Positions 12,252 to 54,495 of a stretch of DNA of 64,000 bases are shown here, one piece after another (within the stretch, counting starts at the first letter, position 1; the number at the start of each line of letters is the position of its first letter). The notes beneath the pieces are model-generated. The model saw only the letters and a list, made by a program, of their open reading frames with translations. It was not told where the DNA came from and searched no databases. The translations under genes and the position numbers were made by a program. Source of the stretch: Candidatus Nomurabacteria bacterium (GTDB lineage: Bacteria; Patescibacteriota; Minisyncoccia; Phycocordibacterales; UBA918); assembly GCA_023898565.1 (NCBI GenBank), contig CP060228.1:696995-760994 (forward strand), in the 5' to 3' direction.

Positions 12252-12974
12252 ATGGCTACTTTGATTGTTGACATTGAGACTAAAGGGAAAGATTGGAAGG
12301 AGTTGCCAGGAATTACGCGCGCTGCGCTCACGCACAGGATTGATCGGACAGATATGCAGCCTGACGAAAAGCGCAGAAAGCTCGACGAGATACATTTGCG
12401 TACAGCATTGTCACCCTTCACAGCATCAATTATTTCGCTTGCGGTGTATGATGTGGAGCGCAGAAGTGGTGCGGTGTACTTCGTGTCAGATACACCGGAT
12501 GAGAGTTTTGAGATTGATGGTTTTATCTGCAAGCAGCGAACGGAAAAAGAAATTCTCGAGGATTTTTGGGAAGGAGCGAAAGACTACGATGTGTTTGTAA
12601 CTTTCAACGGACGATCATTTACTGTCCCATTCATCTATCACCGATCAATTACGCTAGGAGTTAAACCAACTGCAGATATCGCGAAACAGCGGTATCTAAC
12701 CAAGCAACATATGCCATATCATATTGATCTTATGGATGAATTCTCTTTTTATGGCGCTATGCAGCATCGACCATCACTTCAGCTTTTGTGTGGTGCGTAT
12801 AGTATTGAAAATCCGAGCGTCCTTGGTGGAGAAGAAATCGCAGCTGCATTTGCCAAGGAGCGGTACCGCGTCATTGCTGAAAAAAACGTCGGTGATGTAC
12901 AGGCAATAACCAAGCTCTACGATAAGTGGCTTCAGTACCTTGCTCCAACATCATTCATAAATTCATTTCTGTAG
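12252..12974 (+). CDS. RNase H-fold 3'-5' exonuclease related to the PolB exonuclease domain
   Basis: N-terminal LIVDIETKG (Exo I-like DxE). About 240 aa standalone, consistent with the DNA_pol_B_exo2-like family. Confidence 0.5.
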   Translation: MATLIVDIETKGKDWKELPGITRAALTHRIDRTDMQPDEKRRKLDEIHLRTALSPFTASIISLAVYDVERRSGAVYFVSDTPDESFEIDGFICKQRTEKEILEDFWEGAKDYDVFVTFNGRSFTVPFIYHRSITLGVKPTADIAKQRYLTKQHMPYHIDLMDEFSFYGAMQHRPSLQLLCGAYSIENPSVLGGEEIAAAFAKERYRVIAEKNVGDVQAITKLYDKWLQYLAPTSFINSFL

Positions 12975-13021
12975 TGTGGGAAATAGGTTTTTACAAACAG
13001 TTTACTTGTTAGTATATACAA

Positions 13022-14194
13022 ATGGAGATTAAGCAGATTTTTGTTGGCGGCTGGTTTCAGCGTACTCGTTTGCACTTAGGTGAAATTTACGACTTTCTGC
13101 GCGTAGCTGAATCGCCACTTGCGCTTGATAAAAAGCGGCTTGAATCTCTTCGAGCTTCTCTAGAAATTGATACTTTAAAGCTTCAGGTTGACCAGCTCGA
13201 ATACATCATGCTCACTAGTGGTGAGGTTAAGGTAAAGATTTTTGAAGACGGATTGATTGTCTTAGGGACGCATCATTCACATGATCTTCAGGCAGATATA
13301 AAACGACTGACGTCATACTATGAGGAGCAGTTATCACCCGCTATTGGCTACATATTCAGCTTGGGTGCGCCTGTGCCGAAGGAGTTGGCAAATATAAAGA
13401 CGGTTTACCCGTATTTTGTAACAACTACAAATGCTTCAGAAAAAAGAGTCAATGAACTGTTTGATGAATTTACGCAAGAACGCTACTTCACTGTAAACGG
13501 TGAGTCTTTTGATATTTATCGCGGAGATAAGTTGTATATTATTAACCAGAACAGTGTCTCTGACGATGAGGTTGAGCGCTTTGTTGGAGAACAGATTTTT
13601 GTACGTGAATTTCGTGGTCAGTTGCACCGCTACTTGAATTTGCATCGTACTATCTGGGAGCGTATCGCTGATGTGGTGGAGCGTGGTGAAATGATTGGTT
13701 CTGATATACCTGCCTTTAAGAGTAAAGTAGATGAGTATGCAAAGACTATTAGTTTCATCGGTACTCGTATTAATCAGATGGACACCTACCTGCTTACACG
13801 AAAGAATGTTTCTGACAGCGATCCAAAGCTTGTTCGATTTCAAGAAGTACTCGGATATAAACATGAAGCGCTTGGTGATACGCTCGAATACATTAAGGAT
13901 ATTTGGACGCTGACACGTGAATACGTTGCTTCGGCTTCGCAGGTCTTTTCAGATTTGGCCGCCAAGAGTACAGGAAATTCAGTAAAAAATCTCACCATTG
14001 TGACGTCCATGGGTGTAGGCGCTACGTTAATTGGGCTCTTTACCACTAAGACATTGCCACAGTTTACGCTGGTTGGAGTCGGGTACTTCTTTGCTTTGGC
14101 ACTACTTGGGTACTTGGTTAATAAAGGTCTTGGTGTCTGGAGTGCGCGCAAGCGCTATCCAATACGCGTAGTCGAGGTAGCAAAAGACATTTAG
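13022..14194 (+). CDS. hypothetical membrane protein with CorA-like architecture (large cytoplasmic domain plus 2 C-terminal TM), GMN motif absent
   Basis: About 330-aa soluble region then two TM helices and a basic C-terminus; no G-M-N signature. Confidence 0.3.
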   Translation: MEIKQIFVGGWFQRTRLHLGEIYDFLRVAESPLALDKKRLESLRASLEIDTLKLQVDQLEYIMLTSGEVKVKIFEDGLIVLGTHHSHDLQADIKRLTSYYEEQLSPAIGYIFSLGAPVPKELANIKTVYPYFVTTTNASEKRVNELFDEFTQERYFTVNGESFDIYRGDKLYIINQNSVSDDEVERFVGEQIFVREFRGQLHRYLNLHRTIWERIADVVERGEMIGSDIPAFKSKVDEYAKTISFIGTRINQMDTYLLTRKNVSDSDPKLVRFQEVLGYKHEALGDTLEYIKDIWTLTREYVASASQVFSDLAAKSTGNSVKNLTIVTSMGVGATLIGLFTTKTLPQFTLVGVGYFFALALLGYLVNKGLGVWSARKRYPIRVVEVAKDI

Positions 14195-42881: not shown

Positions 42882-42969
42882 GGAAGAGTGGCCGAGTGGT
42901 TTAAGGCGCACGCCTGGAACGCGTGTTGAGCGCAAGCTCTCGCAGGTTCAAATCCTGTCTCTTCCGCCG
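42882..42969 (+). tRNA. tRNA-Ser (anticodon GGA), long variable arm, CCA not encoded
   Basis: Acceptor GGAAGAG/CTCTTCC; D-arm GCC..GGC; anticodon stem CACGC/GCGTG with loop CTGGAAC; long variable arm; T-arm GCAGG-TTCAAAT-CCTGT; discriminator G followed by CCG. Confidence 0.8.
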
Positions 42970-45120: not shown

Positions 45121-45156
45121 ATTTAGTAGTCCACGACGTTGTTAGTATTTATTTTT

Positions 45157-46941
45157 ATGTCACAAGAAATTCGTAATATTGCGATTATCGCCCACGTAGA
45201 CCATGGCAAGACCACCTTGACCGACGGTCTCATGGAATTTGCCGGAAACCGAGAAGAGGGAGCTTCTATGGATAGTAATGCGCTTGAAAAGGAGCGTGGT
45301 ATTACCATTTATGCCAAAAACACCTCGGTAACCTACAAGGACACCAAAATCAACATCGTGGACACGCCAGGTCACGCCGACTTCGGTTCTGAAGTGGAGC
45401 GTGTACTTCGCTCAATCGACTCAGTGCTGCTCGTCGTGGACGCACAGGAAGGCCCAATGCCGCAGACTCGTTTTGTGCTCAAGAAGTCACTTGAGCTTGG
45501 TCTTAAGCCGATTGTGGTTCTTAATAAAATCGATAAGCCAGCAGCCGATCCTGATCGTGCTGAAGAGCAGGTATTGGAGCTTTTCCTTGAGCTTGGCGCT
45601 TCAGACGAGCAGTCAAACTTCCCCGTGGTGTACGCGATTGGTCGCGATAAGGTAGCGAAGCGCAAGATGGAAGATGATCTCACTGATCTTTCACCACTCC
45701 TTGATACTATTCTCGAACACGTTCCAGCAGCGAAGGTATATGAGGAGGGACAGAATCTACGTGCGCAGGTGTTCAATCTCGGTTACGACAACTTCCTTGG
45801 TCGTCTCGCAGTAGCGCGTATCTACGAAGGCAAAATTGCGAAGAACCAGCCAGTAATCATCAAGCACAAGGGTGAAGAAACCAAGAAGGGTAAGGTGGTA
45901 AAGCTCTCTGGCTACAACGGTGTGCAGCAGGTAGAAGTGACTGAGGCTTTTGCCGGCGACATCGTGCTGATTGCTGGTCTTGAAGATATTAATATCGGCG
46001 ATACCGTAACTGACTCAGAAACCGCTGAAGCACTACCGGCAATTAACGTAGACGAGCCAACGGTAGCAATGCAGTTCTTGGTAAACTCATCACCATTTGC
46101 TGGTCGAGAAGGAAAGTACGTGACCTCACGCCAGATTGGTGAGCGTCTCATGAAGGAAATGGAAATCAACGTTGGTCTCCAGGTGGAATCGGCTGGTGGT
46201 GACGCGTACGATGTGCGCGGTCGTGGTGAAATGCACATCGCGATTCTCCTAGAAAACATGCGCCGCGAGGGCTACGAAATGTCTGTCTCACAGCCGCAGG
46301 TAATTATCAAGGAAGTGGACGGAGTGAAAATGGAACCGTATGAAGAGGTGACGGTTGATGTGCCGAGTGAATTCCAGGGTGCTGTAATTGAACGTCTCGG
46401 CAACCGCGGCTTTATCATGCAGAACATGATTATGCACGAAAACCAGGTGCGTCTTCTCTTTGAAGGTCCAACACGCGGTCTTCTCGGCTACAAAAATCAG
46501 TTTATTATCGATACTAAGGGCGAGGGAATTATCGCGTCACGTTTCATCGAATTCCGTCCATATTACGGCGAAATCAAGAAGCGTCAGGTTGGTTCTATGA
46601 TTTCTATGGCAACTGGCAAAGCGCTCGCGTTTGCGCTCTTTGGTCTCCAGGATCGTGGTGAGCTCTACATCGGTGCCGGAGCGGAAGTATACGAAGGGAT
46701 GGTGATTGGAAATACCTCAAAGGGTGAAGAAATGACGGTAAACCCAACGAAGGGTAAGCAGCTCACCAACATGCGTGCGTCAGGTAGCGATGACGCGGTA
46801 ACACTCACACCACACCGCGCCCTTTCAATCGAGCTCGGTCTTGAAATCATGCAGGAAGACGAATATCTCGAAGTCTGTCCAGTTTCAGTTCGCTTGCGCA
46901 AGCAGGGACTGAAGGAATCTGACCGAAAGCGAAGTAAATAA
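45157..46941 (+). CDS. typA: translational GTPase TypA/BipA
   Basis: [31 protein letters not shown]-motifs; about 595 aa EF-G-like domain order. Confidence 0.9.
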
Positions 46942-46943
46942 GC

Positions 46944-46971
46944 AAAAACCACCCGCTTGGGTGGTTTTTGC
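46944..46971 (+). terminator. typA intrinsic terminator
   Basis: aaaaaccacccg-ctt-gggtggttttt. Confidence 0.7.
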
Positions 46972-47016
46972 TTGGGCGAGTATTATACTTACGATATATC
47001 AAATAAGCTTTTGGAT

Positions 47017-47397
47017 ATGGAAGAACTACTTGCAAATATTACGTGGACGCCGGTGATGGTATCGTTTGTGCTGGCGTATGGTCTGGGGTGGTTGTGGTAT
47101 TCACCAAAGATGTTTTATGAAAAGTGGCGTAGCGGCAAAGGCGGCGAGGTGGTGCAGCATCCAATGTGGATGCCAATGACTGCTCAGGCGGGAAGTACAC
47201 TGCTGCTTGCAATTATCACCAACCTCGCCGCCAATGACGGACACGTTGGTCACGCCATCTTGGTAGCCATTACAATCGCAGGATTTATCAAAGCTAATGG
47301 TTTTTACGCAGGCAAGACACGATTTGCGATTGGGGTTGAGGTTGGATATATCATTGCGGTGATTTTTGTGATGGTGGCGGTCAATCTGGTATTGTAG
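47017..47397 (+). CDS. DUF1761-like small membrane protein (paralog 1)
   Basis: Motifs AYGLGWLWYSPKMF..W and 3-4 TM. Paralogous to 47975..48361. Confidence 0.4.
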   Translation: MEELLANITWTPVMVSFVLAYGLGWLWYSPKMFYEKWRSGKGGEVVQHPMWMPMTAQAGSTLLLAIITNLAANDGHVGHAILVAITIAGFIKANGFYAGKTRFAIGVEVGYIIAVIFVMVAVNLVL

Positions 47398-47540
47398 GGA
47401 TTGCTGATTTGCTTCGTCCTTTTGCGACATGCCTCCATCGTTTTCAAGTATCTTAATGCCGTACTCGGTACGGTTTAATTATTGACAAGGGATAGGCTTC
47501 GTCGTACAGTGTTTACCGTTCTTTTGTAAGGAGGTGTGAG

Positions 47541-47858
47541 ATGACTGTGCCGAGCGACATGTTTGAAAATACGCTCAGGTTTATTGCTGTCAACAATCTT
47601 CTGTTGTGGCATTTCGGACGCCGGGCCGATTCTCGTATTGGTAGCGCTGCTGAAGCTGGCTGTGGCTGGATGTATATTCCGGCTACGCAAGAAGAAGAGC
47701 ACCGGATGCTCACCGTGCTTGACCAGTTGCGCAGAGAGATTTTGCGCTGTGATGTCCAGCTGGTTGCCTGTCTGTTTGGCAGATCTGATATCTGCCCCAG
47801 TTTTGGCCCTGTGTTGCGGGTGCAAGTTACTTGGGGGCAGATTTTGGCACAAGCCTGA
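47541..47858 (+). CDS. small hypothetical protein (105 aa)
   Basis: Strong SD AAGGAGGTG 5 nt before the ATG; own terminator at 47882-47908. Confidence 0.45.
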   Translation: MTVPSDMFENTLRFIAVNNLLLWHFGRRADSRIGSAAEAGCGWMYIPATQEEEHRMLTVLDQLRREILRCDVQLVACLFGRSDICPSFGPVLRVQVTWGQILAQA

Positions 47859-47881
47859 GTTTTAACCATGCAGACGATACA

Positions 47882-47908
47882 AAAGGCGCAGTATGCGCCT
47901 TTTTTTAT
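47882..47908 (+). terminator. intrinsic terminator
   Basis: aaaggcgca-gtat-gcgccttttttt. Confidence 0.65.
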
Positions 47909-47974
47909 ATCTCCCATTTTCTCGACAGAAGAGTATACTAGATAGAGTTGTTTACTCGTTTAAGCCTAGCTTGT

Positions 47975-48361
47975 ATGGATCCGATTCTTTTTCACGTGGA
48001 TTGGGCCGCAGTGGTGGTGGGTGCAATCCTGGCCTATTTTATTGGCTGGCTGTGGTACAGCAGACATCTTTTCGGTGCTGACTGGGCGGTGGGAGTCGGG
48101 CTCGATACCGACTCCGCTTCTGCTTCGTATGGCGATGCTATGGTGGCGCAAGCCTTTGGCACTTTCTTGCTCTCCTGGGTGGTGGGTGTAGCAGACGCCA
48201 TCGACAATTACATGCTGGCGATTTTGGTCGCCTTTGCGGTGGCTGCACTAATGAAAGCACGTGGTTTTTTTATGAAAAACTCACGCTACGCGATTGCTGT
48301 TGATAGTGGATACGTTCTTATTGTCGTGTTTGTGATGGTATTGATTCAAGTTTTACTATAG
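47975..48361 (+). CDS. DUF1761-like small membrane protein (paralog 2)
   Basis: AYFIGWLWYSRHLFGADW with the same topology and length as 47017..47397. Confidence 0.4.
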   Translation: MDPILFHVDWAAVVVGAILAYFIGWLWYSRHLFGADWAVGVGLDTDSASASYGDAMVAQAFGTFLLSWVVGVADAIDNYMLAILVAFAVAALMKARGFFMKNSRYAIAVDSGYVLIVVFVMVLIQVLL

Positions 48362-48440
48362 GTCTTTTCTAGGGAGTGGTTGACTTCTGATTTCTACTTG
48401 GGTAATACTTGCGTAAGGTTGTTCTTTTCGGAGGTGCGTC

Positions 48441-48914
48441 ATGTCTCATGCGTTTGTTGTTACCGAATGTACTCGCGTACTCATTCGGAATGTTATATGG
48501 GGCATTGTTGACCACATTCTTAATCTCAAGTCGTTTGAGCGTAGAGTGTCGGTGACGATTTCTTTCCAATATCCAGCGAATAGTTTTGACTCTCAGAACT
48601 ACTTCAGGCACACCGAAACACTGCATGCAGGCCCGGTGCTTGAGGATCAGGTTTTAGAGAGCCTTCTCGGTGCAGCTATAAAGTGTGTAAATCCCTACGC
48701 TAATCCGCATTTTCACTGCAGTACTGTGCGTGGAATGACGGTGGCAGGTTTGTCTGAGCCTGATGTGCCACAGAATGCTCGTCGCGTGATGATTATTTCG
48801 GTATGGGCGCCAGGTGATACATCAAGTGTGCTTGCTCGTGACATCGCATTCCATGCGCCTGAAATGTGGGATGATGTGTTGCGGCTTTTGTATCGAGACG
48901 CTGGACTTTCATGA
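48441..48914 (+). CDS. hypothetical protein (157 aa)
   Basis: SD GGAGGTG 6 nt upstream; terminator at 48918-48943. Confidence 0.5.
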   Translation: MSHAFVVTECTRVLIRNVIWGIVDHILNLKSFERRVSVTISFQYPANSFDSQNYFRHTETLHAGPVLEDQVLESLLGAAIKCVNPYANPHFHCSTVRGMTVAGLSEPDVPQNARRVMIISVWAPGDTSSVLARDIAFHAPEMWDDVLRLLYRDAGLS

Positions 48915-48917
48915 CGT

Positions 48918-48943
48918 AAAGGTCGCCCGAAAGGCGACCTTTC
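48918..48943 (+). terminator. intrinsic terminator
   Basis: aaaggtcgcc-cgaa-aggcgaccttt. Confidence 0.6.
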
Positions 48944-49007
48944 AATTTGAAAGCCTTTGCCTTAAAGACAGGTAGTTTTAGTTGTTATACAACATAAGGA
49001 GTGTCTT

Positions 49008-49460
49008 ATGTCATCGCAAAGAAGCCGCTCGCTTATTCCTGGCCAGTATGAAAAGGAAGCGGCAGTTAGGCAAAAGATTCAAACGATATTTGCTGAACGC
49101 GGTTATTTCGGTCCAGCAAGTGTACTGTTGTGCATGTCATTTCCAACTGCAACGGGTGTGCCACTTCAGTATGATCAGTTCTTTAGTATACATCGAGGAT
49201 TGGAGCGAGAGATTGTTGAGCGCTACTTGGCTGCTATGTCGGTCGCGTTGGCTGAGCATAAAAATCAAGGAGGATTAGTGCTAGGTAAGAATTTTTCGCT
49301 CGTTGGTCTACGTCGTGTATGCTTTGAGAATAAGGCGCCGGTACAAGTACACCTTGTCATGTGGCTGCCGGACATCGATGCTGATCTTCAGGAAATCATT
49401 GCCGTGGAAGTCTCGAAGAATTTTGGAGCGTTTCTACAAATTGTGTTTCCTGGATTGTAA
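49008..49460 (+). CDS. hypothetical protein (150 aa)
   Basis: SD TAAGGAGTG upstream; hairpin at 49464-49497 downstream. Confidence 0.5.
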   Translation: MSSQRSRSLIPGQYEKEAAVRQKIQTIFAERGYFGPASVLLCMSFPTATGVPLQYDQFFSIHRGLEREIVERYLAAMSVALAEHKNQGGLVLGKNFSLVGLRRVCFENKAPVQVHLVMWLPDIDADLQEIIAVEVSKNFGAFLQIVFPGL

Positions 49461-49463
49461 TGC

Positions 49464-49497
49464 AACCACGCGAACAATTAATCGTTCGCGTGGTTTT
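49464..49497 (+). terminator. hairpin terminator
   Basis: aaccacgcgaacaattaatcgttcgcgtggtttt. Confidence 0.5.
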
Positions 49498-49531
49498 CTG
49501 ATGAACACTGCTTGGTGCTACACTGGTGAGT

Positions 49532-49738
49532 ATGGATTCGAAAACACAAGAACAAATTAATGAAATTGAACGAAAAGTGGCAGCAATATATGTTTCCGTT
49601 GAAAAGACTCGTAAATACATGCTCATAACAGCGTGGGTAACCTTGGCAGTTATTGTCTTGCCCTTGGTCGGACTTTTGTTTGCTGTTCCAGCACTCATTA
49701 AAACGGTCACAGAGGCAAGTTCCTTAATGCAGTTTTGA
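49532..49738 (+). CDS. small membrane protein (about 69 aa)
   Basis: TGCTACACT -10-like box 8 nt upstream of the ATG; single C-terminal TM helix. Confidence 0.3.
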   Translation: MDSKTQEQINEIERKVAAIYVSVEKTRKYMLITAWVTLAVIVLPLVGLLFAVPALIKTVTEASSLMQF

Positions 49739-49778
49739 TGTGGTACTCTAATGAGGGATAACCGCAAAGGAGATTGTC

Positions 49779-50045
49779 ATGGATATGCCAGTTTCGACGC
49801 TGCGTATGCAGCATGTCAACCCGTTCAAGCTTACTGGGCAAAGCTTGTGTGTCATCAGTTCATTTTCGACGCTGCCGGAAGAATCGGTCATCGAGGGCTT
49901 ATGGCGAAAGTGTTGCCCGAAGTTCGGTCACCTTTTTCCACTCACGGTCTTTGAACATGCGGGTACACGCTGCCTGGTGGTGGTTCCATCTGGTACTCGA
50001 AAGCGTGAACGACACAACTTTCTCGAGGCGCTTCAAGATGCGTAA
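49779..50045 (+). CDS. small hypothetical protein (88 aa)
   Basis: SD AAGGAG 7 nt upstream; terminator at 50052-50077. Confidence 0.45.
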   Translation: MDMPVSTLRMQHVNPFKLTGQSLCVISSFSTLPEESVIEGLWRKCCPKFGHLFPLTVFEHAGTRCLVVVPSGTRKRERHNFLEALQDA

Positions 50046-50051
50046 ACCTCC

Positions 50052-50077
50052 AAAGGCTGCCAAAAGGCAGCCTTTTT
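50052..50077 (+). terminator. intrinsic terminator
   Basis: aaaggctgcc-aaaa-ggcagccttttt. Confidence 0.65.
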
Positions 50078-50139
50078 AATATGTGCAGCGTGTGCTATTC
50101 TCGTGGCAGTTTTGTTTCTTTTGTTGATGAGGACGTGTC

Positions 50140-50421
50140 ATGTCTGTATGTAATTGGCGGTATGAATACGTAGTGTCGCAAGTGACTGATGTGAGCTTTG
50201 AATATTTGTTTGCAGTAGTTGGTGTGCCGATTGAGTATCGTCTGGAGCACCCTGCATACGACCGAATTAGAAATATTTTTTCAATTTGCGTCGATGTACC
50301 TGCGTGGCAAGTGCAAGTTTCGTCTCGGCCGATTGGCGGGGTATACACACTTGTGTGTAACATTGCCAAAACAGGTTTTCGAAGAAGAATTTCAGGATGT
50401 GTTGAAGTTCATGCACCGTGA
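50140..50421 (+). CDS. small hypothetical protein (93 aa); the alternative overlapping frame 50219..50482 is equally possible
   Basis: Weak SD GAGGA; two overlapping open frames, neither with a recognisable family. Confidence 0.2.
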   Translation: MSVCNWRYEYVVSQVTDVSFEYLFAVVGVPIEYRLEHPAYDRIRNIFSICVDVPAWQVQVSSRPIGGVYTLVCNIAKTGFRRRISGCVEVHAP

Positions 50422-50586
50422 TGCTCGCTGTGCGAAGGTGCGGTCGCTCGCGAAGGTTCGACGTCAAGTTGAGCTGGGCTGAGCATCTTTACAAACAAAA
50501 AGCATGTGCTACACTATGACTAGTGACGTCTGAGCTCTTTTCCGCGCCTCTGGTGCGTAGCTCCGGCAGGGTCACTGACCTCCAAC

Positions 50587-50615
50587 GCCCGTCGCAATTG
50601 CGACGGGCTTTTTTT
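50587..50615 (+). terminator. intrinsic terminator ending a roughly 100-nt ORF-less transcription unit
   Basis: gcccgtcgc-aatt-gcgacgggcttttttt. Confidence 0.65.
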
Positions 50616-50667
50616 ATTTGCACGGCATTCATTTTTTATTGAACCACCAGTGATACAATGAACCAGT

Positions 50668-51261
50668 ATGCAATTTTTTGGATTGATTTCATTACTCCTT
50701 AGTTTGGTAGTAGTTGGATGGTGGTTTGTGAGTGCGGTTCCGGCTCATGCGCCGGAGGAGAGCGCCTTCTCTGAAGCTTCATCGCAAACTAGAGTAGATC
50801 CGGCAATTAAGGCACACATAGCAGCTAAGGCTGATCTTATTCAGCTTGCGGTGCCAGTGGTGAATGATGTTATTGCTCGTCCACTCGTTGTAAGTGGGGA
50901 GGCGCGCGGGTACTGGTTTTTTGAAGCGAGTTTCCCGGTGGTGCTGACAGACTGGGACGGTAAAATTATTGCAGAGTCATATGCGACGGCGGCTGGGGAT
51001 TGGATGACTGAGGATTTTGTGCCGTTCACTGCTACAGTAGATTTTACAAGCCCCTATCACGCCGGTGATCCGGACTTTATGCGCCGCGGTACACTTATAC
51101 TCAAGCGTGACAATCCATCTGGCTTGCCCGAACATGACGATGCGTTAGAAATTCCTGTTTTATTTGAGAACAGCTCAGTAACAGAGCCGGTTGGGCAGCG
51201 CGATACGTATAGTGAAGCAATTGATGTAGCTGAGGAAGCTGCTGAACTCATGAGTAGATAA
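50668..51261 (+). CDS. Gmad2-type immunoglobulin-like domain protein, membrane-anchored
   Basis: N-terminal TM. VSGEARGYWFFEASFPVVLTDWDGKIIAE...GDWMTEDFVPFTATVDF matches the Gmad2 Ig-like pattern. Confidence 0.5.
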   Translation: MQFFGLISLLLSLVVVGWWFVSAVPAHAPEESAFSEASSQTRVDPAIKAHIAAKADLIQLAVPVVNDVIARPLVVSGEARGYWFFEASFPVVLTDWDGKIIAESYATAAGDWMTEDFVPFTATVDFTSPYHAGDPDFMRRGTLILKRDNPSGLPEHDDALEIPVLFENSSVTEPVGQRDTYSEAIDVAEEAAELMSR

Positions 51262-51321: not shown

Positions 51322-52302
51322 ATGGAATACTTAATATCCACGGTCTTAGTGCTTTTATCAGGGCTCTTCTCGGGCTTAACACTAGGACTTCTTTCGCTCG
51401 ATACGCAATCACTTCGTCGTCGTGCCAAACATGGCGATAAAGACGCTGCTATCATTTATCCAATTCGAGAAAAAGGTAATTTGCTGCTGGCAACGCTGCT
51501 TTTAGGTAACGTAGCGGTAAACACTACACTTTCTATCTTTCTTGGCACAATTGCTTCAGGTGTAGTGGCTGGTTTTATCGCGACGGGGCTTATTGTGGTA
51601 TTTGGTGAAATTATTCCACAGGCGGTTATTTCTCGCTATGCGCTATGGTTTGGTGCTAAGACAATTTGGTTTACTAAAATTGCCATCGTCTTAGCGTGGC
51701 CAGTAGCGTACCCAATTGCGAAGGCACTCGACTACTTTCTTGGCTCTGAGCTTCCAGTCGTGTATTCACGTAGTGAGTTGATGGATATTATTTCTGAACA
51801 TGAAGATTCAGAGCATAGTACGATCGATGAGGACGAAGAGCGCATTATGCACGGTGCACTGCAGTTCTCCCATCTGTCTGTCCGTGAAGTGATGACGCCA
51901 TCTGAGCGGGTAGTATCTTTTGATGAAAACCAACGTCTCAACGACGAATTCTTTGAGGAGGTGTATGAGCACGGGTATTCACGTTTGCCGGTTTATAGTG
52001 GAGACAAAGAGAATATTGTCGGTGTCATGTATGTAAAAGACTTGATTGTTGAGGATGAGAATATTTCAATTAAGGAAACAGAGGGTGCGTTTGATGCAAA
52101 GTTTTTGACGGTGCGGGCGGGGGATAAGCTGGACGTTGTTCTGGGGCGTATGCTGAAGCAACATCAGCATCTTGCCGTTGTGCGCAATCAAGCCAAGCGT
52201 TTTGTTGGAGTCATTGCGCTAGAAGACATTATTGAAGAGATTATCCAACAGGAAATTGTTGACGAAGATGATGAGGATCCGGTGGACAGAGATATTGACT
52301 AA
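51322..52302 (+). CDS. CNNM/HlyC/CorC-family membrane protein (DUF21 domain plus CBS pair)
   Basis: Four N-terminal TM (DUF21); two CBS motifs; acidic C-terminal tail. Confidence 0.75.
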   Translation: MEYLISTVLVLLSGLFSGLTLGLLSLDTQSLRRRAKHGDKDAAIIYPIREKGNLLLATLLLGNVAVNTTLSIFLGTIASGVVAGFIATGLIVVFGEIIPQAVISRYALWFGAKTIWFTKIAIVLAWPVAYPIAKALDYFLGSELPVVYSRSELMDIISEHEDSEHSTIDEDEERIMHGALQFSHLSVREVMTPSERVVSFDENQRLNDEFFEEVYEHGYSRLPVYSGDKENIVGVMYVKDLIVEDENISIKETEGAFDAKFLTVRAGDKLDVVLGRMLKQHQHLAVVRNQAKRFVGVIALEDIIEEIIQQEIVDEDDEDPVDRDID

Positions 52303-52368: not shown

Positions 52369-52770
52369 ATGCCAGACGGTGACAGGTCGGTTGTGTGTCA
52401 TGACCAGGACGAGATGGCGCTCAGGCAAGGCTCCAATGGTCGTGTCGTCTTCATTCGAGACCCCGAAGGATGTTGCGAAGAAGTACTGCTTCGTCCTCAA
52501 GATCGCTTAAGGTTAACTAATCTGCCGAAGCGTTTTCGGCAGAGGTACAAGACAGCTGCGTGTGTTGAGTGCTTGTACGTAGTGGCTGAGGGTCAAGCTG
52601 GTATTTTTATCCCGTCCGTGCCAGGTGCGGGACATAATGTGGCAGTGTTACTTGCTAAGCTGGTTATGTATGAAGGAGTACAAATCAAACTGGTAGGAAT
52701 TGCACCGTTTCACTTGCCAAGAAGTGCTTTCGACTGTGCTGTGCCAGGATGCTGGCTTGACCAAACGTAA
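52369..52770 (+). CDS. hypothetical Cys-rich small protein in a GC-rich insert
   Basis: SD GGAGGA 8 nt upstream of the ATG at 52369; own terminator; noticeably higher GC than its neighbours. Confidence 0.45.
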   Translation: MPDGDRSVVCHDQDEMALRQGSNGRVVFIRDPEGCCEEVLLRPQDRLRLTNLPKRFRQRYKTAACVECLYVVAEGQAGIFIPSVPGAGHNVAVLLAKLVMYEGVQIKLVGIAPFHLPRSAFDCAVPGCWLDQT

Positions 52771-52919: not shown

Positions 52920-53345
52920 ATGTCACAAGAAAATGGTTTGGTACATGTCAGGCTTTGTCCCGATCTGCGGACGGATGGGCCGGCCAGAAAACCGCCGCTG
53001 TTTTTGCTCTGCAATCAGGACGGGAAACCGTTCTATGATGAAGAGACCGGTAACTGCCAGGAAGTGATGATCAAAGGCAATGCTCGTCTGCAAGCGGTCT
53101 CGCTTAACGACAGCGTTTCCAGTCGCTATGCCTGGCTTCTGAAAGCGGAAAAGTGCCGGTTGACCCACGTGATCAATGGCCATGGGAACTGGGTGCTCAT
53201 CAGCTCGGAAGCTGGTCGTCGTGAGTTTCGCACGGGCCTTCTGGCTGGCTCTGTCTTCGCGGTTTCTGCTTCAGCCTGGGAGGAACAGCGGCCGCTTCGG
53301 CCTGAGTTCGTGGCTTCCATGATGGACGACATGGCTGCAGCGTAA
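52920..53345 (+). CDS. hypothetical protein (141 aa) in a GC-rich insert
   Basis: SD GGAGGT 6 nt upstream; no family recognised. Confidence 0.45.
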   Translation: MSQENGLVHVRLCPDLRTDGPARKPPLFLLCNQDGKPFYDEETGNCQEVMIKGNARLQAVSLNDSVSSRYAWLLKAEKCRLTHVINGHGNWVLISSEAGRREFRTGLLAGSVFAVSASAWEEQRPLRPEFVASMMDDMAAA

Positions 53346-54183: not shown

Positions 54184-54495
54184 TCACGAGAGCAGAACCC
54201 CGTGAGTCAGAAAAAGTACGGTGATGTGATTTGACACGGGCGTGTCGCTTGAAAGCCACTTGTAGAACGCCGCGTTGTTGAGCAGGTCATTGATGGTCGA
54301 GCGGGACAGTGGTTGATTCAGCGACCACGCAACCATTTGACACTTTTCTTTAAAAACAGCGTAAAAACGCTGCTTTCGGATAAGCTCGGCGCCAATCGGT
54401 GTTTTCCGCAGGAAGGACTCGTGCAGAAAGTATTCAAGCGGCATGTTCAGAACATCAGTGCTTTGCGTTTGTGCGGTGGTGTACATGTGAACCAC
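54184..54495 (-). CDS. hypothetical protein (103 aa)
   Basis: ORF with a terminator downstream. No family recognised. Confidence 0.3.
   Translation of the reverse strand: MVHMYTTAQTQSTDVLNMPLEYFLHESFLRKTPIGAELIRKQRFYAVFKEKCQMVAWSLNQPLSRSTINDLLNNAAFYKWLSSDTPVSNHITVLFLTHGVLLS

Follow-up and report, generated by a model that had tools for sequence, protein, structure and literature searches.

A probable small flexible locus of fast-diverging orphan genes downstream of typA in a Parcubacteria clade

Introduction

Genomes of the candidate phyla radiation (CPR) or Patescibacteria are tiny and rich in proteins of unknown function, and the upkeep of flexible gene content in them is poorly documented. 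Streamlined genomes carry flexible islands or hypervariable regions (HVRs) at conserved positions, for example the HVRs of SAR11 (Pelagibacter) and 'replacement' flexible islands. Phage morons represent autonomous units composed of a promoter, a gene and a terminator. Here, these systems are compared with an island of eight small genes (o1 to o8, positions 46957-50650) within a 64,000-nucleotide (nt) stretch of contig CP060228.1 from a Candidatus (Ca.) Nomurabacteria assembly (GCA_023898565.1). This whole stretch is termed the window, and its source is a Parcubacteria-group Patescibacteria/CPR bacterium with a genome of ~0.95 Mb.

The island is probably a small, non-mobile flexible locus of the chromosome, held at a fixed site between typA and the Gmad2/CNNM/rluB genes in one genus-level clade of Parcubacteria. 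It is best described as a locus that joins a conserved DUF1761/o2 module to fast-diverging, recombining soluble orphans, including the o4/o5 family. With SAR11-type flexible islands it has in common the fixed position, a native composition, the lack of mobility genes, lineage-specific content and deeply divergent alleles that are swapped by homologous recombination via conserved flanks. It differs from them in its size (~2-4 kb of variable DNA), in carrying soluble orphans instead of surface-polysaccharide or transporter genes, in the exchange of single cassettes and in being known from three lineages only. As in morons, most island genes are bounded by a promoter-like site and an intrinsic terminator (lacking after o3 and o6); unlike morons, the island is located outside a prophage, gave negative results against PHROGs and BFVD and has native codon usage. 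Arrays of orphan immunity genes likewise consist of tandem, fast-diverging small cytoplasmic paralogs with variable copy number and pseudogenes. However, the island lacks an adjacent toxin or secretion gene and a known immunity domain, its genes are monocistronic and it is known from sequence alone.

If this description is correct, the locus offers a compact, clean case of autonomous cassettes that are located at a fixed site, exchanged singly and much faster to diverge than the genes around them. Its contribution is four to five orphan protein families and an RNA candidate, and does not extend to a new mechanism. Should the o4/o5 proteins or the RNA take part in interactions with the host, phages or toxins, they would provide a handle on episymbiont-specific biology.

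Conserved gene order and lineage-specific content

The island was compared with two sister lineages (L091 and L092), which were reached through the sole detectable homologs of o4, and with nine strains or contigs of the window's own species (L001-L009). The gene order is common to the window, L091 and L092: typA, a DUF1761 gene, a 105-aa gene, a second DUF1761 gene, a ~155-aa gene, a ~150-aa gene, more small genes, Gmad2 and CNNM. Protein lengths are nearly constant, with 126 aa for o1 and 105 aa for o2 in all three, and 128, 129 and 128 aa for o3, 157, 154 and 153 aa for o4 and 150, 149 and 151 aa for o5 in the window, L091 and L092, respectively. Sequence identities are far less uniform (Table 1), and each lineage carries one unique gene, namely o7 in the window, a 174-aa gene in L091 and a 149-aa gene in L092.

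Beyond these lineages, relatives are few. Among 5.8 billion proteins, o2 and o4 each form two 90%-identity clusters, and among 1.84 billion proteins o4 has two representatives. A word-indexed search with o5 returned o5 itself only, yet orthologs are present in L091 and L092. Two JGI metagenome scans, which used o3 and o4 profiles, yielded nothing. At the 80 closest typA loci, o2, o4, o5, o7 and o8 are missing, and the only island genes that recur there are an o6 homolog, in L020, and a DUF1761 gene, in L012. In L012, L013 and L014, the next relatives with TypA proteins 77-82% identical to that of the window, typA is not followed by the block. In L013 (11435-12456), two unrelated minus-strand orphans are followed by rluB ~1 kb after typA, in comparison to ~6.4 kb here, and L012 (6568-7678) contains a minus-strand 119-aa open reading frame (ORF) and then a DUF1761 gene. 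Because these two intervals hold different content, the 3' flank of typA can be regarded as a plastic site across the family.

Gene decay adds to this variability. In the window, o8 is a pseudogene with an extra A at 50347, a lesion also present in L001, L002 and L007. L004, L005, L006, L008 and L009 carry a second, independent lesion, a T6-to-T5 deletion at 50276, and the intact 113-aa form, which would end at window position 50482, is present among the sampled strains in L003 only. Since each lesion occurs in several independent assemblies, assembly errors are not the cause, and o8 is thus pseudogenised in most strains. Intact orthologs are encoded in L091 (7353-7691) and L092. The array therefore turns over by gene gain, gene loss and pseudogenisation. 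The term 'accessory', which the original prediction had applied to the island, agrees with its few database relatives, its absence from the next relatives, the variable content among the three lineages and the broken o8 of most strains. Synteny with normal composition in all related genomes, or clear housekeeping homologs, had been named as findings that would speak against that prediction. The block is syntenic and normal in composition in the two sister lineages, but conservation does not extend to relatives further away, and housekeeping homologs were not found.

Mosaic divergence

From typA to the end of o3, the window (46498-48354) and L092 (1-1855) are 96% identical at the nucleotide level. 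Past position 48354 the two sequences cannot be aligned; identity is 73-75% from o8 on and then 83-93% downstream (to ~59336). As the match to L092 stops at 48354, a breakpoint is placed at or just past the 3' end of o3. Divergence was also measured at fourfold third positions of conserved residues. For the window and L092, this measure amounts to 0.00-0.07 in o1-o3, 0.27-0.43 in TypA, CNNM and the sigma factor encoded further downstream, and 0.69-0.83, which represents saturation, in o4, o5, o6, o8 and Gmad2. Between L091 and L092, o4 reaches 0.46 and most neighbours 0.55-0.63, with lower values for TypA (0.42) and for p141 (0.31), an orphan gene downstream of the island. For o5, two of the three pairs are saturated (0.79 and 0.83) and the pair of window and L091 stands at 0.55 (11/20 sites). 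These differences from gene to gene indicate that individual cassettes have different histories. Homologous recombination thus replaces single cassettes. Judged by the same values, the block from typA to o3 was exchanged recently, and the alleles from o4 to Gmad2 are older than the genome background.

The ratio of nonsynonymous to synonymous substitution rates (dN/dS) is 0.05-0.16 for o1-o3 (o1 0.07, o2 0.16) and 0.14-0.43 for o4, o5 and o8 (o4 0.14-0.35). Nonsynonymous divergence (dN) is 0.51-0.57 for o4 and 0.47-0.72 for o5. In the comparison of the window with L091, o4 and o5 reach 0.57-0.73 versus 0.02-0.16 for their neighbours, at similar synonymous saturation.

The DUF1761 pair and o2

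The two ~125-aa membrane proteins with a GWLWYS motif that the original prediction had described as paralogs are confirmed, and both match PF08570 over nearly the full profile (positions 2-121 of 123). The match of o3 (42 bits, E 1.4e-10) is above the gathering cutoff of 31 bits, and o1 obtains 29.7 bits (E 8.6e-7). Because of its full-length profile coverage and its 37.5% identity to o3 (E 1e-28), o1 is counted as a DUF1761 member by paralogy. The two genes do not bracket the island, as had been proposed; both are located at its 5' end, where they flank o2 alone. PF08570 is a family without known function, for which a literature search returned incidental mentions only. Among the loci examined, the DUF1761 pair with an interposed o2 occurs in this clade only. 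It is proposed that the three genes would form a membrane module, in which two DUF1761 paralogs flank the soluble alpha/beta protein o2 under ordinary purifying selection.

For o2, the best AlphaFold2 (AF2) model has a predicted local distance difference test (pLDDT) score of 73 and a predicted template modelling (pTM) score of 0.61, and predicts an alpha-beta-beta-alpha-beta-beta two-layer sandwich. Foldseek comparison of this model with the PDB and BFVD yielded no match at E <= 0.001, and the modelled fold offers no readable function. An antisense ORF of 134 aa overlaps o2 (47513-47917, minus strand) and was rejected as a gene, given its frame score of -0.31 versus 0.02 for o2 and the conservation of o2.

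The o4/o5 family and the remaining small genes

The six small ORFs reported alongside the DUF1761 pair (o2 and o4-o8) exist, and none has a match in Pfam, NCBIfam, PHROGs or PADLOC. The annotated frame obtains the best codon score of the six possible frames in all ORFs, bar ties for o6 and for the short 3' fragment of o8. Near-equal ortholog lengths, dN/dS and best-frame scores mark o2, o4, o5 and o8 as protein-coding, so that o1-o5 and o8 are, as judged by these sequence measures, real genes. The possibility of spurious ORFs was rejected for o2, o4, o5 and o8 on the basis of ortholog conservation, and was not fully rejected for o7.

Profile-profile alignment of the o4 and o5 families with hhalign gave a score of 30.2 (E 3e-4, 122 columns), compared to 12.4 +/- 2.5 with a maximum of 21.1 in a column-shuffled null, which identifies o5 as a remote tandem paralog of o4. 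The lineage-unique 149-aa gene of L092 is an extra o5-like paralog (hhalign E 0.009), a relationship that is weaker than the one between o4 and o5. Across seven aligned sequences of this family, a G and a VW.P motif are invariant. Apart from these two relationships, hhalign detected no significantly related pair of small ORFs. A single paralog family for all small ORFs was rejected, as pairwise phmmer comparisons (o2, o4, o5, o7, o8, the 174-aa gene of L091 and the L013 ORFs) were not significant. Two repeats were also considered and discarded as signs of kinship, namely the C-terminal echo between o4 and o8 (WDDVLRLLYRDA versus FQDVLKFMHRDA; 30-nt repeat D3) and the 36-nt repeat D1 in o2 and o8, both of which are within chance for a region of this size according to our own estimate.

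The membrane helix of o6 was read from its sequence, and the gene is called at 68 aa in independent assemblies. Its homolog in L020, a more distant Parcubacteria MAG (metagenome-assembled genome), is located downstream of typA (12850-13053) and encodes a 67-aa protein with one membrane helix, which is 38% identical to o6 and carries the same EKTRKY motif. With this homolog, o6 is not a clade-restricted orphan. Finally, o7 yields no tblastn match in L091 or L092. Its annotated frame is the best of six, but with a low score, and strains differ by two nonsynonymous and zero synonymous single-nucleotide polymorphisms.

Transcription and translation signals

Five strong Shine-Dalgarno (SD) sequences had been predicted, and all of them were recovered, upstream of o2, o4, o5, o7 and o8 (Table 1). 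Allowing for alternative starts, GGAGG or AGGAG occurs upstream of 4/8 island genes versus 2/41 other genes of the window (Fisher p = 0.004). Of the conserved genes that were examined in and around the island (typA, CNNM, the sigma factor and the DUF1761 pair), none has a GGAGG SD. The orthologs in L091 and L092 retain the island SDs, and the promoter/SD layout of o4 is also found upstream of its L091 ortholog. In a genome that is otherwise SD-poor, canonical SDs thus occur mainly at the orphan genes. The gene o6 lacks an SD, as its mRNA is probably leaderless. The same probably holds for the Gmad2 mRNA, the extended -10 elements ending 7-9 nt before the ATG in both cases. Such TGnTAnnnT elements precede o6 (49516-49534), Gmad2 (50651-50670) and a minus-strand 174-aa gene (~55096), and their 3' ends are 6-9 nt from the ATG, which suggests that leaderless mRNAs are common in this genome.

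The five hairpin/T-run terminators that had been reported within the island are all predicted to be stable, with dG values of -14.3 to -20.5 kcal/mol and z scores of -4.8 to -7.1 versus shuffled sequences. A strict scan detects ~13 plus-strand terminators per 64 kb, five of them inside the 3.7 kb of the island, a ~10-fold enrichment. In a consensus scan of the region from 44 to 54 kb, 21 terminator-like sites were found in comparison to 10.7 +/- 3.1 in shuffles. Same-strand intergenic gaps are only marginally wider in the island than elsewhere (median 93 versus 34 nt, p = 0.06). An A-tract 5' and a T-tract 3' of the stem (AAAGG...CCTTT) characterize the hairpins at 46940-73, 47881-47903, 48918-42, 50052-75 and 53363-91, and such terminators could therefore work in both directions.

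A candidate small RNA downstream of o8

A promoter-like element is located between the o8 stop codon and the last terminator and precedes a ~98-nt candidate small RNA (sRNA), which includes this terminator. Because this conserved promoter-like element precedes it, the terminator at 50587 probably also closes a separate small RNA. The predicted structure has a minimum free energy of -44.7 kcal/mol (z -6.0). Promoter, stem and terminator are kept in L091 (7730-7838) and L092 (4316-4412), next to an o8 protein that is less than 55% identical. In the consensus structure of the three lineages, two-sided changes affect 9/30 pairs, although with three sequences the covariation is weak. A covariance model detected no further copy in the window or in 43 other loci, which restricts the element to these three lineages, and no Rfam family reached threshold.

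In Firmicutes, the sRNAs RsaE/RoxS use C-rich seeds to pair with SD sequences. The candidate likewise has a 5' stem-loop, an exposed C-rich CCUCC, a Rho-independent terminator and its own promoter; it differs in that it contains one C-rich motif only and lacks an Rfam match, and its description comes from the DNA sequence only. The CCUCC linker is complementary to SDs, and the best predicted duplex involves the p141 leader UUGGAGGUC (-14.5 to -17 kcal/mol in the three lineages), which is conserved in all three and perfectly complementary to the linker. Duplexes at gene starts range from -10 to -16.4 kcal/mol; all 50-nt windows have a mean of -8.7 and a 1st percentile of -18.5. As the energies fall within the bulk of this background, a target ranking by duplex energy is not decisive, and the candidate RNA with its predicted p141 pairing is to be taken as a lead and not as a finding.

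A model for the locus and competing explanations

According to the preferred model of a non-mobile flexible locus, the array would consist of self-contained cassettes, each comprising a promoter, an SD or leaderless start, a coding sequence and usually a terminator (lacking for o6). These cassettes would encode small soluble cytoplasmic orphans and the single-pass membrane protein o6, followed by the conserved sRNA-like unit. As autonomous gene units they could be gained, lost or exchanged without disturbing their neighbours. The o4/o5 paralogs share no motif beyond the invariant G and W.P, and the proteins tolerate very fast change. Based on these sequence features, the cassettes most likely encode dispensable, non-enzymatic binding or adaptor proteins. 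Each lineage would then have its own partners for them, such as factors of the host, of phages or related to toxins.

Several points weigh against this model. The comparison covers three lineages only, with synonymous sites saturated in most comparisons. Conserved or invariant columns of o4, o5 and o8 are not clustered (p = 0.43-0.46), and with dN/dS below 1 and unclustered columns diversifying selection is not demonstrated and relaxed constraint fits equally. Structural information is sparse: the AF2 model of o4 is unusable (pLDDT 44), the remaining four of five o2 models have pLDDT values of 40-48, and the best one resembles generic or de novo designed folds only. Profile searches against PDB sequences with the o4/o5, o8 and o2 alignments gave nothing significant, and the lack of matches to the island orphans in Pfam, NCBIfam, PHROGs and PADLOC points the same way. 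Coding evidence is weak for o7, the weakest in the array, and consists of its frame score alone. The promoters, the leaderless starts and the sRNA itself are only predicted.

Among the competing explanations, a conflict-system array retains the most weight, even though it is unlikely overall. Here, the proteins of o4, o5, o8 and of the genes unique to one lineage would be immunity-like or would neutralise phages or toxins; balancing or diversifying selection would keep their alleles divergent, and recombination would shuffle them. Tandem remote paralogs in two to three copies, dN of 0.5-0.7 beside neighbours at 0.02-0.16, allele ages above the genome background, cassette-wise exchange, a unique gene per lineage, the repeated loss of o8 and the small, soluble, cytoplasmic nature of the proteins are all consistent with such an array. 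However, neither a toxin, Rhs or contact-dependent inhibition (CDI), secretion or known defence gene nor any other toxin-like gene is found nearby, and no Pfam immunity domain was detected in the island proteins. PADLOC-DB yielded no match at E <= 0.01 for the island proteins and the lineage-unique genes of L091 and L092. Moreover, dN/dS remains below 1, variable sites are unclustered and the genes are monocistronic instead of trailing a toxin operon.

Somewhat less probable again are weakly constrained orphans that drift to loss in the genome of a symbiont with small populations and whose function is by now slight or nil. Two independent frameshifts of o8, which leave most sampled strains with a broken gene, fit this explanation, as do a dN/dS of o4 and o5 several-fold above that of the neighbours, the unclustered conserved columns, the mildly atypical amino-acid composition of the island orphans (z -0.3 to -1.7) and an o7 that is backed by its frame score only. 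On the other hand, the frames, lengths, start contexts, SDs, promoters and terminators of o2, o4 and o5 are kept in three lineages despite saturated synonymous divergence, and dN/dS values of 0.14-0.43 are clearly below 1. In addition, a genome of 0.95 Mb is generally expected to delete useless DNA quickly. A combined scenario, in which the SD-bearing cassettes (o2, o4, o5, o7, o8, p133 and p141) form an accessory regulon controlled post-transcriptionally by the CCUCC of the sRNA and o4/o5 represent a new conflict-type, immunity-like family whose ancient alleles persist under balancing selection, is considered doubtful and falls behind both of the preceding ones.

The original prediction had viewed the island as typical of accessory or mobile cargo. 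A horizontally acquired islet, imported with its own signals and possibly as a phage 'moron', would account for the promoter and terminator of each gene, for canonical SDs in an SD-poor genome, for the absence from the next relatives and for the sharp recombination boundaries. The distribution is indeed patchy, as the island is syntenic in three lineages and absent from L012, L013, L014 and other typA loci. Its composition, however, is native: GC content is 0.46-0.48 (window range 0.41-0.53), the tetranucleotide distance has a z score of -1.0 (rank 108 of 121) and synonymous codon usage ranges from z -0.6 to +0.6 for all island genes but o6 (-1.9). Furthermore, Pfam content reveals no integrase, transposase or recombinase within +/-10 kb, phage genes and flanking direct or inverted repeats were not found, the nearest tRNA gene is not adjacent, all three lineages share its position and gene order, and the structure search against viral proteins (BFVD) returned none at E <= 0.001. 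The mobile part of the claim is thus not upheld, and import as mobile cargo is held to be quite improbable.

Toxin-antitoxin modules or small secreted effectors, also suggested originally and favoured by small gene size and clustering only, are held to be highly improbable, since the monocistronic genes are 40-143 nt apart with terminators between most of them (none after o3 and o6) and form no overlapping or coupled pairs, toxin or antitoxin domains are lacking (no Pfam, PADLOC, PHROG or NCBIfam match), and o2, o4, o5, o7 and o8 have neither a hydrophobic, signal-peptide-like N-terminus nor a membrane segment (maximum 19-residue hydropathy <=1.4 at a threshold of 1.6, a measure that covers classical export signals).

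Features of the locus and its surroundings

Table 1. Genes and signals of the island and its flanks. Identities are amino-acid identities of the window protein to L091 / L092; terminator z scores are relative to shuffles.
Feature	Position	Strand	Identity (L091 / L092)	Remarks
tRNA-Ser	42882-42968			only tRNA near; 4 kb upstream, five genes intervening
typA/bipA (TypA)	45139-46941	+	96% / 98%	directly upstream of island
typA/bipA terminator	46940..46973	both		bidirectional hairpin, island 5' edge; dG -25.5 kcal/mol, z -5.2; kept in L091
o1	47017..47397	+	82% / 98%	DUF1761 membrane protein, paralog A, 126 aa; GWLWYS motif; no SD
o2 promoter-like site	47482..47510	+		TTGACA-17 nt-TACAGT, 10/12 consensus; SD GGAGG 47530-47534
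o2	47541-47858	+	66% / 96%	soluble orphan, 105 aa; between DUF1761 genes
o2 terminator	47881..47903	+		dG -14.3 kcal/mol, z -5.2; kept in L091
o3	47975..48361	+	88% / 98%	DUF1761 membrane protein, paralog B, 128 aa; GWLWYS motif
o4 promoter-like site	48380..48409	+		TTGACT-18 nt-AATACT; SD GGAGG 48430-48434
o4	48441-48914	+	41% / 44%	soluble orphan, 157 aa; lineage-specific '...VW.P...' family, fast-diverging
o4 terminator	48918..48942	+		dG -16.3 kcal/mol, z -4.8
o5 SD	48996	+		AAGGAG
o5	49008-49460	+	32% / 45%	soluble orphan, 150 aa; remote tandem paralog of o4
o5 terminator	49464..49495	+		dG -20.5 kcal/mol, z -7.1; perfect inverted repeat I8
o6 extended -10	49516-49524	+		TGCTACACT; ends 7 nt before ATG
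o6	49532-49738	+	absent / 74%	68 aa; one C-terminal membrane helix
o7 SD	49767	+		AAGGAG
o7	49779-50045	+		soluble orphan, 88 aa; window's own lineage only
o7 terminator	50052..50075	+		dG -17.5 kcal/mol, z -4.9
o8 extended -10	50093	+		TGCTATTCT; SD GAGGA 50129
o8	50140..50482	+	42% / 50-53% (intact form)	pseudogene here (93-aa ORF 50140-50421); intact form 113 aa
sRNA promoter-like site	50488..50515	+		TTTACA-16 nt-TG-extended TACACT; between o8 stop and last terminator
Candidate sRNA, ~98 nt	50520..50617	+		5' stem-loop; single-stranded CCUCC linker 50579-50583; terminator 50587-50608
Last terminator	50587-50608	+		dG -20.1 kcal/mol
Gmad2-domain protein	50668-51261		60% / 62%	directly 3' of island
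CNNM/CBS protein	51322-52302		88% / 93%	after Gmad2

An exact-protein look-up places the window's species in at least 19 metagenome contigs. Its TypA is at most 85% identical to that of any GTDB species representative, and the nearest representatives by TypA are MAGs labelled Minisyncoccia, Kaiserbacteria, Nomurabacteria and Adlerbacteria. Among NCBI MAGs, identical or nearly identical island proteins are annotated as 'hypothetical proteins' in Ca. Kaiserbacteria (KC902_00745-00760), and further such proteins are found in Ca. Nomurabacteria (H6780_03950-03960, on a 951,832-bp contig) and Ca. Saccharibacteria (KDA17_07620).

Beyond CNNM, the window encodes an RluB-type pseudouridine synthase and an extracytoplasmic function (ECF)-type sigma factor. 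Three small orphan genes are located downstream of CNNM, at 52369-52770, 52920-53345 and 54184-54486 (minus strand). They are 28-69% identical between lineages and have atypical synonymous codons (z -2.1 to -2.7), which the island genes do not. The first two of them, p133 (52369) and p141 (52920), also carry GGAGG.

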